A DNA stretch of 64,000 nt, from the IMG/VR virus record IMGVR_UViG_3300037606_000123, positions 32,001-96,000 of that record. One strand, given 5' to 3'. This DNA comes from a virus. The notes beneath the pieces were generated by a model. It was not told the origin of the DNA. It saw nothing but the letters and a program-made list of their open reading frames with translations, and did no database searches. Shown here piece by piece: positions 1,370-32,784 of this stretch (position 1 is its first letter; each line of letters starts with the position of its first letter). Made by a program: the position numbers and the translations under genes.

Positions 1370-1600
1370 TTAATCTTTATAGTTCTTTAATTTACAACAA
1401 CGAGCATCATTAAATGAGATGTTATTTTTTCTTGCAAAATTAGAACGCACTCTATCAGAATTGTTATAACCATCTTCTGCATAAACTAATGCTTCTTTGG
1501 TTCTGTTTGCATCTGATGCTACAAACATTGTTTGTTTTACTTTACTTCTGTCTAAAATATCTAATAATTTACAGACAGGTATAATATTTGCAATACTCAT
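1370..1600 (-). CDS. Hypothetical protein (76 aa) heading the left tRNA cluster
   Basis: ORF with A-rich upstream region and TATATTTG box at 1626-1633. Confidence 0.6.
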   Translation of the reverse strand: MSIANIIPVCKLLDILDRSKVKQTMFVASDANRTKEALVYAEDGYNNSDRVRSNFARKNNISFNDARCCKLKNYKD

Positions 1601-1675: not shown

Positions 1676-1712
1676 AAAAAAAAATTGGACTCATATTTCT
1701 ATGGTCCAATTT
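1676..1712 (-). terminator. Intrinsic terminator (attenuator) upstream of the left tRNA cluster
   Basis: Minus strand AAATTGGAC-CATA-GAAA-TATG-A-GTCCAATTT followed by a T run. Confidence 0.8.
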
Positions 1713-1734
1713 AATTTATATTTTTTAAATAAAT

Positions 1735-1815
1735 TTAACCCATAGTTTTTTTAGTACATAATAAAATTGTGCACATGCTAATTGTAAGGGTTAATATTTT
1801 ATTTATATTTTTCAT
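1735..1815 (-). promoter_or_regulatory. Leader peptide MKNINKILTLTISMCTILLCTKKTMG (26 aa), putative attenuator
   Basis: Read manually; rich in Leu/Ile/Thr codons; CTATGG at its 3' end is complementary to CCATAG in the terminator 5' arm. Confidence 0.7.
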
Positions 1816-1914
1816 AATAGTTATATGTTATATATATGTAAAAGTTTACTCTTCTTTTTAATATTATTTGAAAAATATATAATATATAATATAAATTATA
1901 AATGCATAATTATA

Positions 1915-2484
1915 ATGTCTAAATATATTTTTAATAAATTAATAAACAACAATGTTAAAATAACAAATACAGTAACTGGTGATATATCATTCTTATCACC
2001 AGATAAGAATGTTTCGTTATTAAATAAACATATAAATAATATAAATACATATATTATTGAAATTTCTACTAGTAGTGATAATAAAAAAATGTATGATAAA
2101 ATAATTATTCCATATAATGAAATAGATTTATTATCATCTGTACCGACATTTGTTGCAACAACACCCGAAGATTTTATTACTGAATTAAATACAAAATATT
2201 TTTTTGTAGTAGTTAACATTTCAATTGATTCTATTTCAGTTAATACAGGACATCTTAGAGTACCTAATATAATTAGGACTAATGGTATAGGTATTATTAA
2301 TAGTATAGTGTATGATTTTACTGTTGCTAATGTTGGAAATTTAAATGGTTTTATTCTAAATAATATTATAAAACCTGGAGAATCTCTTAGTTTCGAAGCT
2401 GGTGCTATAAATAACTATTATGCAAGTAATATTATTGTATATGATGGAACAGATACAGAATTGATAATTATATATAACAATTAA
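1915..2484 (+). CDS. Hypothetical virion-associated protein (start revised to MSKYIF)
   Basis: Beta-rich composition; first gene of a co-oriented fibre-like cassette. Confidence 0.6.
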   Translation: MSKYIFNKLINNNVKITNTVTGDISFLSPDKNVSLLNKHINNINTYIIEISTSSDNKKMYDKIIIPYNEIDLLSSVPTFVATTPEDFITELNTKYFFVVVNISIDSISVNTGHLRVPNIIRTNGIGIINSIVYDFTVANVGNLNGFILNNIIKPGESLSFEAGAINNYYASNIIVYDGTDTELIIIYNN

Positions 2485-2487
2485 ATT

Positions 2488-2895
2488 ATGAGCACAAATA
2501 TATCTATAAAATTAAATAAGGGGTTTATAGCAGTTGAAAATTATGATGCATTACCATCTGTTGTTACTAATATTAATGGACATTATTGGGTTATTGCTAG
2601 TCAAGGAATAGCCTGGTTACCGTATTCAGTAGGTGGTACATATCACCCAAAAGGTATTTATTTTTCTGATGGTTTCACATGGACACATATAGATACACCG
2701 TTTCAAGCAACACAAGGAGAAGTAAATATTGGATTGAATGATGACAAATTTTTAACACCTTCAACATTCAATGAGTCTGCATTAATAAAGTCTAAAGTGA
2801 ATATAGCAACAAATCAAATTTTTTTAATTGATCAAGCTGCAATATTAATAAAAAATCAACGAATATTTGTTGATTTTTTAACAAAAATACAATAA
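2488..2895 (+). CDS. Hypothetical tail-fibre-associated protein
   Basis: Tight operon spacing; G/W-rich N-terminal part. Confidence 0.55.
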   Translation: MSTNISIKLNKGFIAVENYDALPSVVTNINGHYWVIASQGIAWLPYSVGGTYHPKGIYFSDGFTWTHIDTPFQATQGEVNIGLNDDKFLTPSTFNESALIKSKVNIATNQIFLIDQAAILIKNQRIFVDFLTKIQ

Positions 2896-2985
2896 ATAAA
2901 TAAATAATATTTGTTGATTTTATAACATAAACGCATTAAATAAATAATATATAAATATACAAATAATAAATAAACAAATAAATAA

Positions 2986-3192
2986 ATGCCAACAATAGAA
3001 GAAGCAATTATAAATTTAACCACAGAAACAACGGCATTATTAGATGCAGTTAATATTTCAAAATTAACGATAGAGTCTAATATTGCTGCAGCTGTTTTAG
3101 TTTCAACAAATGCTGCAATCGAACCATTGTTTGTTGTATCAACTAATCTTATAAATACACAAGCATTACTTGTAACGTTTATTAGTTTATAA
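2986..3192 (+). CDS. Small helical tail-fibre cassette protein
   Basis: N-terminus (LTTETTALLDAVN) resembles that of the next gene (LTTATTLLTNAVA). Confidence 0.6.
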   Translation: MPTIEEAIINLTTETTALLDAVNISKLTIESNIAAAVLVSTNAAIEPLFVVSTNLINTQALLVTFISL

Positions 3193-3210
3193 AAAATAAA
3201 TAAAATAAAT

Positions 3211-3810
3211 ATGTCAACTACAGAACAATTATTAGCAGATTTAACCACAGCAACAACTTTATTAACAAATGCAGTTGCCGTACAACAAATAGCAGTAAAT
3301 GATGCAGTTTCACAATTTGCTTCTGTAATTAATAAAGTTAATACAGAATTGAATTATGTAGATAATACATCAGATGCAAACAAATCTGTTAGTAATGCAA
3401 CAACAGAAGCATTATCTTTTAAACAGAACACACTTGTGTCTGGCGTAAACATAAGTACGGTCAACGGTTTATCTATATTAGAAGGTCAACCATTAGTAAT
3501 AGAAAGAAGTGCAACATCACTCGTAAGTCTTGAATACGATAATAGAGATACTTTAAGATTAGAACCTTTGTTACCAAGCATATTAGATGATTCTGTTGTT
3601 GTTGAAGGTATTGGTTTATTAATGTTTGTGACAACACAGCTTGAACCAGATGATGATGAAACATGTTTTACGTCATTGATAGGACAATGGTTATTATCTG
3701 TTCCTGCACCAGATTTATTAGACGCTTGGGCAACCGATGAAAGACATTTTAACGATGAACTTGACGAAGATGAAGTAACAAGATTATCAACAAGTTTTGT
3801 TGGTTTATAA
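3211..3810 (+). CDS. Tail-fibre cassette protein (199 aa)
   Basis: N-terminal coiled segment then a fibre-like KQNTLVSGVNISTVNG motif. Confidence 0.6.
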   Translation: MSTTEQLLADLTTATTLLTNAVAVQQIAVNDAVSQFASVINKVNTELNYVDNTSDANKSVSNATTEALSFKQNTLVSGVNISTVNGLSILEGQPLVIERSATSLVSLEYDNRDTLRLEPLLPSILDDSVVVEGIGLLMFVTTQLEPDDDETCFTSLIGQWLLSVPAPDLLDAWATDERHFNDELDEDEVTRLSTSFVGL

Positions 3811-3833
3811 AAAAAAAATATAAAAATATAAAA

Positions 3834-5915
3834 ATGAGATTATCAACAAGAAGATTATTAACAGCAGTTAAATCGGGATTAGTCCTTGGTCCAGAATTAG
3901 AAACAAGGTTGTTAGATGCAGGTGTTAAATCTGGATTTTTAGAAGCACTTTCAATGCGTAGTGAAACTAAAAGTTTGGCTGCTAATCCGGTAGCAATAAC
4001 GGCTATTGTAGCAAGTCCGATAGCAACAGATTCAGTTTTTGGAGCAGCTAGTATAAATAATTCAACAGCTGCACAAGCAATGGCTGCTAGTCCTGTAGCA
4101 ATGCTTAATGTAACGCTTAACTTGCCAACTTTAACTAAAATTATAAACAATCAGGTGGCGTGGAATATATACTTACAAAGCCCTTATGCTGTAGATAATA
4201 TCGGTTATGCTGCTGCTGTTTTTGCTGGATTAAATTTAATAACATATCCAGATAGAACTTTTGTATTTGCAGACACTGTAGCAATGGCACAAATCATAGC
4301 TAGTACTAATGCAATTAGATCTGTTATTGAAGATGATGATTTAGTTTTAAGAACATCAGTCAATAGTATTGGTATGGAGTTAGTAGCTACAAATGCAACC
4401 GCTTTAAGTTATATAACAAATTCTCAAAGAGGTATGAGTGCTTGTGCAAACAGTGCTATAGCTATGTTTGAATTATCTTCAAAGTCATTGGCTATAGTTG
4501 CTATATCTAATAGTAAAATAGCAGTAGATACAATATATGCTAATAGTGTTGCAAGAGCTTCTTACAAAGCAAGTGCATTCTTTGTAGCAAATTTAAAAAA
4601 CACAATTGCAAACCTAGCAGGAATTAACCCATTGTCCTTTCCAACAATTGACGATATTATAAATAATAATATTGCATTAACTGCGGTTAACGCAAATGAA
4701 GGTGCATCAGAAGCATTATCTTCAAGTAGTGCTGCAATGCTAACATTAGGGACAAGTGCTAATCTTTCTATTGTAACAGGTAATACAGTTATTATGGCAG
4801 CCTTGGCAAGTAATAATACTGCAATGGTTAATATAGCTACAAGTACAAACTTTGCACTTGTGAAAGGCAATGCAGTAATAATGACTGCTCTTGCAGGTAA
4901 TTCAGCAGGCGTAACAGCGTTATCTACCCACGCTAATTTAACACTTGCCATTAATGACCCTATTGGAATGGCTAAATTATCAGCTAATTCTATATCAGTT
5001 GGAATCTTAGTAGGAGCTACTTCAACAGTTGGAGTAAGAGATATTATATTTAACTCTGAAACAGCGATGGTATCAGTGTCTAACAATACTGTATCAATCA
5101 ATGCTATTAATGCAAACGCTACAAGATGGACGGAATTTAAAGAAAGCCCTTATTATGAAGACAATGCTTTTGCAATAACTTATAATCTTGCAGGTATAAC
5201 TCTTATAATGTCAACTTTTACTCAAATGATAGCTAAAGCATCAGCTTTAACATTAGTAAATGCAAACGCAGGAGCATCAGAAGTACTAGCAACTAATTCA
5301 GATGCAATGCTTACCCTTGCTACAAGTGCAAACTTTGGTATAGTAGTTGGAAATAGTTTAATTATGACAGGATTCGTTACAAATGCAGCAGCACTTACAG
5401 CGCTTGGAGGACATTCAAATATTAATGTAGCAATAGGAAATGCTGTAGCAATTGGATTAATAGTTAATTCAGCACCAGCAATGGCAAGTTATGTTGCAAA
5501 TAATACAATCCTTGCATCACTGTTTGCTAGTTCAGTAGCTAAAACAGCTATATTTACTTCTACTGTAACAGTAGCAGCATTAGCTGCATCAGCATCAGCT
5601 GTTACATATTTGAAATCTATCCAAACATTATTATTATCATCAACTACCCCAACAGCTGGGAATTGGGTTTCATTTGGAACTGGAGTACCAGCTAAAATAT
5701 TAATGGTAACTTACAGACAACAGGGAATTGGTGCAATTGAAACACCAATTAGATTCCGTTCCCCAGAGGGTCCACAATTAAGTATGGTAGGTACAGCAGC
5801 AATTGGTGATCAGATTGGTAGAACACATATTGGTGCTTATAGTAACTTAGAATTTAATACTACTGCTATTAGTGCAATCACAGGATCAGGTATTGGTTAC
5901 ATAAGCATGCTATAA
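3834..5915 (+). CDS. Ala-rich repetitive 693-aa protein, putative virion/fibre protein
   Basis: Three related modules containing (F/L)AG(L/I) plus many short amphipathic Ala-rich repeats. Confidence 0.7.
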   Translation: MRLSTRRLLTAVKSGLVLGPELETRLLDAGVKSGFLEALSMRSETKSLAANPVAITAIVASPIATDSVFGAASINNSTAAQAMAASPVAMLNVTLNLPTLTKIINNQVAWNIYLQSPYAVDNIGYAAAVFAGLNLITYPDRTFVFADTVAMAQIIASTNAIRSVIEDDDLVLRTSVNSIGMELVATNATALSYITNSQRGMSACANSAIAMFELSSKSLAIVAISNSKIAVDTIYANSVARASYKASAFFVANLKNTIANLAGINPLSFPTIDDIINNNIALTAVNANEGASEALSSSSAAMLTLGTSANLSIVTGNTVIMAALASNNTAMVNIATSTNFALVKGNAVIMTALAGNSAGVTALSTHANLTLAINDPIGMAKLSANSISVGILVGATSTVGVRDIIFNSETAMVSVSNNTVSINAINANATRWTEFKESPYYEDNAFAITYNLAGITLIMSTFTQMIAKASALTLVNANAGASEVLATNSDAMLTLATSANFGIVVGNSLIMTGFVTNAAALTALGGHSNINVAIGNAVAIGLIVNSAPAMASYVANNTILASLFASSVAKTAIFTSTVTVAALAASASAVTYLKSIQTLLLSSTTPTAGNWVSFGTGVPAKILMVTYRQQGIGAIETPIRFRSPEGPQLSMVGTAAIGDQIGRTHIGAYSNLEFNTTAISAITGSGIGYISML

Positions 5916-6098: not shown

Positions 6099-6662
6099 AT
6101 GGCATTACCACATTTTAATACCGTATTATCACATAATACAAATGCTGAACCTATTTATAAAGCATTATTTGAATTAACATTTGATTTACCTCCAGTTTTA
6201 GGTCGTTCTATAACTGATGTACAATTGATGTTAGAGAATGCTCGAAATATAATGTTACCATTAACACCAGATATTGAAGTACAAGTACAACGTTTTAAAT
6301 TTAGTACAAGAGCTTATGTAACATTACCATCAGAAACACATATTGCTGATTTATCTATCAATTTTAATTTAAATGAAAATGATAGAAACGCAGTATTTGT
6401 ATGGAATATATTAAAATCATGGTACGATTTAGCATGGAATTCACAAACAGGTGAAACACATACTAAAACAGAAATGGTTGGAAATATTATAGTAAATCAC
6501 CATAATAAAAAAGGACAAGTTATTAGACGTGTTACTTATCGTAATGTACAAATTGTTGGTGTAAGTGAAATCGAATTAAATTGGGACTCTCCAACAGACA
6601 TATTAGAATGTTCTGGTAAATTTATCGCAGATTACTGGGAAGATTTATATATTGATCAATAA
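6099..6662 (+). CDS. Tail tube protein (T4 gp19-like)
   Basis: Size and motifs EPIYKALFELTF, WNILKSWYDL, ELNWDS, FIADYWED are typical of myovirus tube proteins. Confidence 0.75.
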   Translation: MALPHFNTVLSHNTNAEPIYKALFELTFDLPPVLGRSITDVQLMLENARNIMLPLTPDIEVQVQRFKFSTRAYVTLPSETHIADLSINFNLNENDRNAVFVWNILKSWYDLAWNSQTGETHTKTEMVGNIIVNHHNKKGQVIRRVTYRNVQIVGVSEIELNWDSPTDILECSGKFIADYWEDLYIDQ

Positions 6663-12958: not shown

Positions 12959-13145
12959 AATGCAAATATAATAATAATAAATTAAAAAATAGCAAAATTT
13001 GGTAATATTCTTGTACTACCATATTTCAAAACACATATCTCAAATTTTTGTAGCATGTGTATTACTTTTTATTTATATAGAAATAAAAAACCGACTAAAA
13101 TACGTTTAGCCGGTTTATCTATGAATGTTAAAACATTCGTGCCAC

Positions 13146-13540
13146 GGTGGAGGTGGAGGGATTCGAACCCCCGTTTTTATAAGAAAATTCATTATTTTCT
13201 ACATGTTTATTTATCTTATTCACAAGATAACAAAATATTTATTTTTTGTTATAACAAACATTTTATTCAATTTTAAAGTTTGAATAAAAAACAACTTTTT
13301 GTTTACTGATTGGTTAATCCTTTCGGATCGACTTAAGCTGTTGCTAATTCAAAAGCTGTCTCAGTTACTACAGCTGTAGAAGAAACTTCTACTGAACCAC
13401 CTAAGTCAGAAACTAATTTGTTAAAAGAAGTTTCGTTTTTAAAGTTTGCATTTATTTTTTAGTACTTTATTTAAGTGTATTTACAAAAACACTACATGCT
13501 TATATTGATCATACATTACAAATCAAATCCAAACACCCCC
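13146..13540 (-). ncRNA. ssrA: tmRNA; tag ORF 13449-13333 encodes ANFKNETSFNKLVSDLGGSVEVSSTAVVTETAFELATA
   Basis: 5' GGGGGTG pairs with 3' CACCTCC-A with G3.U70; T-arm GGGGG-TTCGAAT-CCCTC; resume context ATAAAT-GCA. Confidence 0.9.
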
Positions 13541-13612
13541 ATAAATCAAAGAACATATATTTCTATTACAAATATATAAATTATATATTAAAAATAAAAA
13601 TATGTTTAATTT

Positions 13613-31648: not shown

Positions 31649-31733
31649 TTTTTATATTAAATTAATTATTAATATCTTTGTAAAGAATTTAATAAAGGAG
31701 TAAACTTTTTTAATATATAACAATATAATAAAC

Positions 31734-31811
31734 ATGAAAAGAATTTTAAACATACAAGCAGTTATAGGTCAAGCCGGGAGAAATCTACCGACTCAGAATT
31801 TGTATTGTTAA
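31734..31811 (+). promoter_or_regulatory. Leader peptide MKRILNIQAVIGQAGRNLPTQNLYC (25 aa), putative attenuator
   Basis: Read manually; GACTCAG (31790-31796) is complementary to the terminator 5' arm CTGAGTC (31840-31846). Confidence 0.75.
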
Positions 31812-31834: not shown

Positions 31835-31867
31835 AAAACCTGAGTCAATTTGATTCAGGTTTTTTTT
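31835..31867 (+). terminator. Attenuator terminator before tRNA-Gly/Ile/Ala
   Basis: AAAACCTGAGTC-AATTT-GATTCAGGTTTT plus further T, 9 nt before tRNA-Gly. Confidence 0.85.
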
Positions 31868-31876
31868 ATTTATAAT

Positions 31877-31947
31877 GCAAGATATAGCTTAATGATAAAG
31901 CGCCACACTTCCAATGTGGAGACGGAGTTTGATTCTCATATTTTGCT
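31877..31947 (+). tRNA. trnG: tRNA-Gly(TCC), atypical acceptor/T stems
   Basis: CCACA-CTTCCAA-TGTGG anticodon arm; GCAAGATA/TATTTTGC can form 8 bp; weak T-stem. Confidence 0.75.
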
Positions 31948-31961
31948 CTAAATTATAATAT

Positions 31962-32033
31962 GCACCATTAATTCAATGGTAGAGTAAATGTCTTATATAC
32001 ATTCGGTCATAGGTTCGATTCCTATATGGTGCA
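31962..32033 (+). tRNA. trnI: tRNA-Ile(TAT)
   Basis: GCACCAT/ATGGTGC acceptor, AATGT-CTTATAT-ACATT, ATAGG-TTCGATT-CCTAT. Confidence 0.9.
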
Positions 32034-32049
32034 CAAATAAAAAAATAAC

Positions 32050-32122
32050 GGGTTGATGTTGAAGATGGCTATCATAACGGTTTTGCAAATCGTTGTCCTG
32101 GGTTCAAGTCCCAGTCGATCCA
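32050..32122 (+). tRNA. trnA: tRNA-Ala(TGC)
   Basis: ACGGT-TTTGCAA-ATCGT; G3.U70 in GGGTTGA/TCGATCC. Confidence 0.88.
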
Positions 32123-32568: not shown

Positions 32569-32625
32569 ATGAAAAAAACAAATAAATACCAGCAAAATAA
32601 CTTACAACAATTATATAATTGTTGA
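32569..32625 (+). promoter_or_regulatory. Gln-rich leader peptide MKKTNKYQQNNLQQLYNC (18 aa), putative attenuator
   Basis: CAG CAA..CAA CAA codons; TTGACAGA (32622-32629) is complementary to TCTGTTAA (32658-32665). Confidence 0.82.
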
Positions 32626-32652
32626 CAGAAATTGTATTATTAAAATTTTTAC

Positions 32653-32686
32653 AAAAGTCTGTTAATATTAATTAACAGACTTTTTT
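32653..32686 (+). terminator. Attenuator terminator directly before tRNA-Gln
   Basis: AAAAGTCTGTTAAT-ATTA-ATTAACAGACTTTTTT. Confidence 0.88.
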
Positions 32687-32688
32687 AT

Positions 32689-32760
32689 TGTCCTATAGTG
32701 AAATTGGCATCACACGTCCCTTTGAAGGATGTATTTCAGGTTCGAATCCTGATTGGACAA
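32689..32760 (+). tRNA. trnQ: tRNA-Gln(TTG)
   Basis: TGTCCTA/TTGGACA, CGTCC-CTTTGAA-GGATG, TCAGG-TTCGAAT-CCTGA. Confidence 0.92.
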
Positions 32761-32784
32761 CAACAAAAACACTAAAACACTAAA

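Follow-up and report, generated by a model that had tools for sequence, protein, structure and literature searches.

Why phages carry tRNA genes is an old question, with codon supply weighed against escape from tRNA-cutting defences. How such genes are regulated has, to our knowledge, barely been studied. The locus described here raises the question of whether a phage can place a block of tRNA genes behind a leader that is read for the very codons those tRNAs serve. It lies near one end of the window, by which we mean the whole 64,000-nt stretch analyzed (bases 32001-96000 of a 123,031-bp virus record; G+C 23.8%), and consists of a short minus-strand ORF and an intrinsic terminator, here called unit L, followed by a conserved small protein gene and a tRNA cluster. 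A preliminary description of this DNA, made from the sequence alone, had read the arrangement as a leader attenuator. That reading gains support from relatives with compensatory changes, from tRNA-Cys and tRNA-Met genes further along the cluster, from two more units in the window (R1 and R2) and from two in Cellulophaga phage phi4:1.

Results

The phage genome and its transcription signals

DNA runs matching the phage were found in two salt-lake metagenomes only, one of which is possibly the source of the record; no RNA run was found to contain it. A Bacteroidota-type box, TAnnTTTG, mainly in the form TATATTTG, lies upstream of many genes in the phage genome, and most genes end in intrinsic terminators built of an A-tract, a hairpin and a T-tract. 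Most terminators in the genome are perfect palindromes of this build that read as terminators in either orientation; those of the three units ahead of tRNA genes scored on one strand only. The phage also encodes a tmRNA at 13145-13540 on the minus strand (73 bits; tag ETAFELATA), with a TATATTTG promoter at 13576 and a terminator at about 13090.

Unit L stands ahead of a tRNA cluster

Unit L (Table 1) sits in a divergent spacer, since plus-strand tail-fibre-like genes begin at 1915, on its far side. The 76-aa protein encoded behind it has relatives on four short metagenome contigs (L001-L004), where it always lies directly ahead of tRNA-Leu(UAA) and is followed by Leu, Met, Ile, Thr and Cys tRNAs. 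Members of the family are 76-77 aa long, share an invariant NNSDRVRS motif and a CC pair, and are always encoded after the promoter and ahead of the first tRNA-Leu. Searches of Pfam and PHROG gave no family for the 76-aa ORF, and its Atlas matches fall below the useful range.

The intron of tRNA-Leu(UAA) is placed after anticodon position U34, and the Rfam group I intron model gave it no score at E up to 1. The region of this tRNA is 66% identical to a stretch of the 735-kb uncultured phage LR756501, and within it positions 958-1056 share 78% identity with Agrobacterium phage Atu_ph07. In the aberrant tRNA at 814-903 on the minus strand, the insert sits in the anticodon loop, and the gene would read as Thr AGU if spliced. 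The one at 605-727, on the same strand, carries about 50 extra nt in the variable region; Rfam alignment gives it the anticodon AAG, and ARAGORN gives a different intron reading.

The preliminary description guessed that the cluster continues past the window edge, and it does, with tRNA-Thr(UGU), tRNA-Cys(GCA) and a CAU tRNA. Cys, Lys, Met, Asn and Ser tRNAs had been suggested as possible matches to the leader on that side; of these, Cys and Met were found, and Lys, Asn and Ser were absent. Ahead of the Thr(UGU), Cys and Met tRNAs stand another promoter and a weak T12 site. No strong minus-strand terminator was seen from 1684 to the window edge, and in L001 the tRNA cluster is continuous. Close to the edge, at 53-121 on the minus strand, a DUF805 RNA motif (RF03081, 70.8 bits) follows a TATATTTG promoter (166-173, same strand) and heads a long ORF-free stretch that extends beyond the edge.

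Table 1. Features of unit L, the genes behind it, units R1 and R2, and the leader units of phi4:1. Positions are those of the window, except for phi4:1.
Feature	Position	Strand	Remarks
Unit L, whole element	1676-1847	-	One of three such units in the window
Upstream promoter-like block P1	1820-1847	-	AAACTTTT, 13 nt, ATATAAC, 4 nt to ATG; conserved; putative promoter
Unit L leader ORF	1735-1815	-	26 codons + TAA; ATGAAA start; open in L002 and L004
Region 1, anti-antiterminator 5' strand	1788-1805	-	TAAATAAA ... TTAACCC; codons 4-10; in MFE and centroid folds
Region 2	1726-1745	-	CTATGGGTTAA + TTTATTTA; contains the stop codon; pairs with region 1 or the terminator 5' strand
Intrinsic terminator (regions 3:4)	1676-1712	-	A-tract, 13-bp bulged hairpin, GAAA loop, T9; -12.9 kcal/mol
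Internal host-type promoter P2	1626-1633	-	TATATTTG; 25 nt ahead of the 76-aa ORF; kept in L001-L004
Conserved 76-aa protein	1370-1600	-	Between the candidate attenuator and the tRNAs; four relatives, 61-63% identity
tRNA-Leu(UAA)	1261-953	-	223-nt intron
tRNA-Thr(AGU)	903-814	-	16-nt insert
tRNA best read as Leu(AAG)	727-605	-	Long insert
tRNA-Ile(GAU)	468-394	-
tRNA-Leu(UAG)	303-220	-
R1 promoters	31673-31729	+	Host-type TATCTTTG at 31673-31680; P1-type block AAACTTTT ... ATATAAT at 31702-31729
R1 leader ORF	31734-31811	+	25 codons; codons 7-15 IQAVIGQAG; antiterminator segment GACTCAG at 31790-31796
R1 terminator	31836-31867	+	12-bp hairpin + T8; -14.0 kcal/mol
R2 leader ORF	32569-32625	+	18 codons; Gln at positions 8, 9, 13 and 14; regions 1 + 2 at 32605-32629
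R2 terminator	32653-32686	+	-13.5 kcal/mol; 3 nt ahead of tRNA-Gln(UUG) at 32689-32761
phi4:1 leader units	about 5201-5072 and 4262-4097	minus strand of locus

The leader codons match the tRNAs behind the unit

The leader ORF contains TTA three times, CTT once, ATT and ATA twice each, and five Thr codons (ACC once, ACA and ACT twice each); the numbers of TTA, CTT, ATT and Thr codons given in the preliminary description are correct for 1815-1735. Codons 7-21, ILTLTISMCTILLCT, form a run in which 14 of 15 are drawn from {I,L,T,M,C}. These are the amino acids of the tRNAs behind unit L, including the Thr, Cys and Met tRNAs beyond the window edge. Across six frames of the 123-kb genome, 15-codon windows with 14 codons from this set occur at three places, which corresponds to 6 of 91,866 stop-free windows. 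A cognate codon is present in the leader for seven of the eight downstream tRNAs; Leu(UAG) has none in the window leader, and CTA is present in the leader of L004.

A bare 26-codon ATG ORF in a spacer of 314 nt is not beyond chance, as one arises in 24% of shuffles, and a composition of at least 50% Ile+Leu+Thr is unremarkable (24 of 374 small ORFs in the genome). Judged from the sequences compared, it is through the codon run and its conservation in relatives, not as an ORF alone, that the unit L ORF is more than chance.

Putative promoter elements on either side of the terminator

No perfect TAnnTTTG box was seen ahead of the unit L ORF. What stands there is the block P1. It belongs to no recognised promoter type, and no other non-coding block of the three-phage alignment is as conserved. 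Lying 4 nt from the ATG, it would give a transcript with a very short or absent 5' UTR. A block of this type also precedes unit R1 and about eight other gene starts in the genome. The general form (AAACTTTT, 12-13 nt, an ATATAAT-like element, 3-4 nt, ATG) is found before about ten gene starts, with sites at 1847-1820 (-), 31702-31729 (+), 36917, 52947, 26926 (-) and 16990 (-) and, further along the genome on the window scale, at 67772 (-) and 73227. From this recurrence it is possible that the block represents a second promoter class giving nearly leaderless mRNAs. Boxes of the TATATTTG kind only 4 nt from an ATG also occur, at 12970, 61185 and 63005.

The preliminary description had noted a host-type box at 1626-1633, downstream of the terminator. 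We find it as TATATTTG on the minus strand (P2), 43 nt beyond the T-tract of unit L. It had cautioned that attenuation may for this reason control only an upstream promoter, and the caution holds, with P2 kept in four relatives: because P2 is downstream of the terminator, unit L can only modulate read-through from an upstream promoter. Most tRNA transcription may even bypass unit L, since both a promoter and a protein gene lie between its terminator and the tRNAs.

The leader transcript has predicted, mutually exclusive pairings

The terminator hairpin of unit L (1712-1682) has 9+4 pairs with one bulged A and a GAAA loop, and the T9 tract lies at 1684-1676. Its build is the same as that of the gene-end terminators of the phage; a simple consensus scan missed it because of the bulge. 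In the predicted fold of the leader, a long hairpin of region 1 with region 2 is followed by the terminator, and none of 200 shuffles folds as well (z = -4.1). Region 2 comprises the end of the coding sequence with its stop codon and the 9 nt beyond it, and the whole 5' strand of the terminator is an alternative partner for it. A pairing of CTATGG with CCATAG had already been pointed out in the preliminary description. CTATGG (1745-1740) indeed complements the 5' strand of the GAAA-loop hairpin, and these 6 bp are the core of a longer antiterminator, weak in the window, where the duplex has 6 pairs and a second short helix (-8.9 kcal/mol; 10% of shuffles as good). In L004 it has 11 pairs and -12.1 kcal/mol (5 of 1000 shuffles as good), and in L002 it has an internal mismatch and -7.4 kcal/mol (21% of shuffles as good). 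The antiterminator pairing is thus present in all three phages, with the stop codon inside region 2.

To place a ribosome on the leader, we folded the transcript up to the terminator loop under a 30-nt ribosome mask. With no ribosome, region 1 holds region 2 and the capture of the terminator 5' strand is 0 kcal/mol. With the A-site at codons 5-14, capture reaches -8.2 kcal/mol, and with the ribosome at the stop codon it falls to between -1 and -2 kcal/mol. Within this model, the profile is the three-state behaviour of classical attenuators. The zero capture obtained at A-site codons 16-20 was rejected as evidence; it is probably an unphysical artefact, since the model draws the 1:2 hairpin around the ribosome.

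Unit L is conserved where its flank is not

Two of the four contigs, L002 and L004, extend upstream, and both keep the ORF, the position of its stop, the terminator and both promoter blocks, the upstream block reading AAACTTTT ... ATATATAAC just before the ATG. The comparison of unit L comprises only three sequences (window, L002 and L004), from which the structure pairs were read directly, with the loop alignment gapped. The leader ORF has 25 codons in L002, through an in-frame 3-nt deletion, and 26 in L004. Across the codon run, four substitutions distinguish L002 from L004, all of them third-position and all synonymous. In the other two frames, stops occur in two or more of the three phages. 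The peptide core MCTILLCT is conserved; the part after the last Cys varies (KKTMG, GISIG, DFSMV).

The pairings are maintained as well. In the region 1:2 hairpin, a C-G pair is replaced by A-T in L004, a compensatory change, and L002 shows a register shift. The inner stem of the terminator, CATA/TATG, is re-paired as CTTTA/TAAAG in L002.

The far-side gene in L002 and L004 is an 89%-identical homologue of window 6099-6662. It differs from the gene beside unit L in the window, so the conservation is a property of unit L and not of its flank. The tail-fibre-like genes at 1915-5915 (+) are absent from L002 and L004, which on this comparison points to an inserted or swapped host-range cassette. 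No further relatives of unit L were found by protein- and pattern-based scans of viral and metagenome contigs.

Two further units precede tRNA genes in the window

R1 and R2 came to light while promoter boxes were being listed. Behind R1, tRNA-Gly(UCC), Ile(UAU) and Ala(UGC) lie at 31877-32122, 10 nt past the terminator, with Gln(UUG) further on; no promoter box was seen between the R1 terminator and tRNA-Gly(UCC). Windows of the R1 type, with 8 of 9 codons from {G,I,A,Q}, occur at 13 places genome-wide, and the R1 codons GGT and GCC are not read by the UCC and UGC anticodons under standard wobble. R2 begins 6 nt after the stop of the preceding gene and is nested within the operon that R1 would control. 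Windows of its type, with 4 Gln in 7 codons, occur at 31 places genome-wide. Pairing the leaders with the tRNA sets of the wrong units gave no enrichment.

The antiterminator duplex beats 98.8% of shuffles in R1 and 98.2% in R2. In the masked fold, antitermination is predicted with the A-site at codons 5-15 of R1 and 9-14 of R2, which is the matched-codon stretch, and there is none from the matched codons to the stop. Taken as a whole, R1 shows no unusual degree of structure (z = -1.7), and it has no 1:2 hairpin. In the whole genome, the terminators of L, R1 and R2 are the only strong ones with a mini-ORF ahead and tRNA genes behind; no long ORF ends at any of them, and the spacing from stop to hairpin in the three units is 22, 24 and 28 nt.

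The closest relative of the gene upstream of R1 (L007) has no tRNA cluster behind it, nor are there any tRNAs in L008, a relative of the 187-aa protein at 44%; R1 and R2 are therefore without a comparative test. Homologues were found neither for the divergent 189-aa gene nor for the 130-aa gene that lies between R1 and R2.

Leader units divide the tRNA array of a cultured phage

Cellulophaga phage phi4:1 (NC_021788; L006), an unrelated phage that is in culture, came up via its tRNA-Ile. Its array of 23 tRNAs is split into blocks by two units of leader ORF and terminator. In the first, a TATGTTTG box lies 4 nt from the ATG of an unannotated 22-codon ORF, codons 4-14 of which read QRLHLQELEQP and are followed by a terminator. 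Behind this leader come Pro, Glu, Gln, His, Leu(UAG), Leu(UAA) and Arg(ACG) tRNAs; all 11 codons of the run are cognate to them, and all 7 tRNAs are represented. With the amino-acid frequencies of the 123-kb genome, the QRLHEP set sums to 0.246, and 11 consecutive codons from it would be expected at about 2e-7 per position. The second unit has the same promoter repeat, an ORF annotated as gp075, and a terminator after it. Among the last 24 codons of gp075, 23 are for amino acids of the next tRNA block, Ala through Tyr. The annotated TTG start of this hypothetical gene is probably wrong.

No promoter box was seen behind the terminators of R1, R2 and the two phi4:1 units. Unit L alone has a host-type promoter and a protein gene behind its terminator.

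Discussion

A candidate ribosome-mediated attenuator

We consider it likely, on the sequence comparisons above, that unit L is a ribosome-mediated attenuator, by which slow reading of the matched codons lets more polymerases pass the terminator into the tRNA operon. From its anatomy and conservation, the match of codons to tRNAs and the predicted folds, we infer an active upstream promoter, translation of the ORF, stalling and read-through, which would work together as follows. Transcription would start at the conserved block just ahead of the ATG, and the 26-codon ORF would be translated at once. If codons 7-21 are read quickly, the ribosome would reach the stop codon and cover region 2, hairpin 1712-1682 would form and transcription would stop at the T9 tract. 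If no ribosome is loaded, region 1 would pair with region 2 and the terminator would form too. A ribosome stalled in the run, with the tRNAs scarce or damaged, would cover region 1 and leave region 2 to pair with the terminator 5' strand. Polymerase could then enter the 76-aa ORF and the Leu, Thr and Ile tRNA genes, with the further Thr, Cys and Met tRNAs behind them, and the shortage would be relieved. P2 (1633-1626) would provide a basal supply, to which the attenuator would add a conditional boost.

Alternative readings

The unit could instead be a plain insulator, in which the terminator stops stray or antisense transcription from the divergent tail-fibre region before it reaches TATATTTG and the ORF is incidental. 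The short distance from the T-tract to that promoter (43 nt) fits such a role, as do the A-tract/hairpin/T-tract build shared with ordinary gene-end terminators and the ease with which shuffling yields a 26-codon ORF (24%). We nevertheless regard it as unlikely. In both relatives the ORF still begins with ATGAAA and stops at the corresponding position, the deletion leaves the frame intact and the changes in the run are synonymous, and the run matches the tRNA set. The combination of ORF and terminator is also found ahead of two more tRNA blocks in the window and of two in phi4:1.

A trans-acting small non-coding RNA of about 140-190 nt, composed of hairpin 1805-1726 and the terminator hairpin and with the ORF untranslated, would account for a fold far more stable than that of shuffles (z = -4.1, 0 of 200), for the compensatory changes in both hairpins, and for C-terminal residues that change in step with the RNA pairing. 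Such hairpins are exactly what an attenuator requires, however, and R1, which has the same build, is not unusually structured. The ORF frame is moreover open in all three phages, whereas stops interrupt the other frames in two or more of them; the indel preserves the frame, and the changes in the run are third-position and synonymous. An untranslated RNA is for these reasons quite improbable.

The run also resembles what a hydrophobic peptide would show, which counts against the attenuator reading, and the encoded peptide does combine a positively charged N-terminus with an apolar core of 15 residues, two Cys among them, and the conserved MCTILLCT, but a stand-alone small hydrophobic or lipoprotein-like peptide gene (membrane or type I toxin-like) that is unrelated to the tRNAs seems very unlikely, given an apolar stretch short for a membrane helix, no conservation after the last Cys, no Pfam or PHROG family, and polar peptides in R1, R2 and the first phi4:1 unit, three units of the same build whose leaders each match the tRNAs behind them. 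The polar sister units and the unconserved peptide tail also led us to reject a lipoprotein signal or small toxin as the main reading.

Relation to known systems

Leader attenuators of enterobacteria include thrL (Thr/Ile), ilvL (Ile/Leu/Val), trpL, hisL, leuL and pheL. Like thrL and ilvL, unit L has a short leader ORF with a run of regulatory codons by which several amino acids would be sensed at once, a stop codon in region 2 and an intrinsic terminator ahead of the genes that it would regulate. Exclusive 1:2, 2:3 and 3:4 pairings are predicted for it, of which 2:3 is weak in the window, and the folds would give termination whether the leader goes untranslated or is translated unhindered. 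It differs from them in what lies downstream, which is the 76-aa protein and tRNA genes and not genes for biosynthesis, transport or synthetases. With tRNA genes as the regulated genes, the signal would be the decoding capacity for the codons that the products serve. The leader also lists up to five or more amino acids, with at least one codon per tRNA. The host of the phage is of the Bacteroidota type, a putative promoter element stands only 4 nt ahead of the ATG, and unit L has an internal promoter behind its terminator. The Rfam Trp, His, Leu, Thr and Phe leaders gave no match in the window at the gathering threshold or in 1-2600 at E up to 1.

T-box riboswitches bind uncharged tRNA through a specifier loop and the T-box sequence, without translation, and control synthetase, biosynthesis and transport genes, mainly in Firmicutes. 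They resemble the proposed attenuator in coupling tRNA status to read-through of an intrinsic terminator; the sensing element of unit L would be an ORF. A cmscan of 1-2600 at E up to 1 gave no T-box, and returned only the tRNAs, the DUF805 RNA and two chance hits.

We found no publication on leader-peptide control of tRNA genes, in a search that covered subscription journals thinly. A Phe-rich leader ahead of E. coli tRNA-Phe genes was rejected as a precedent, since there is no such ORF upstream of K-12 pheV.

Implications for phage tRNA genes

More broadly, we lean slightly towards the view that large phages of Bacteroidota-type hosts keep each tRNA block behind a 'checklist' leader for the codons its tRNAs serve, where slow decoding of the listed codons switches on just that block. 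Unit L would then be a two-tier version, in which a constitutive host-type promoter is joined by an attenuated boost from a phage-type promoter that starts almost at the ATG. Slow decoding could arise from a mismatch in codon usage or from host anticodon nucleases. The idea is directly testable, since Cellulophaga phage phi4:1 and its host are both in culture. If it is true, the phage measures decoding capacity and responds with the matching tRNAs, and classical attenuation would extend from amino-acid supply to tRNA supply. The arrangement would also offer a simple signature in the sequence by which such circuits could be found, and from which one could predict the tRNAs that a phage handles as a single functional block.
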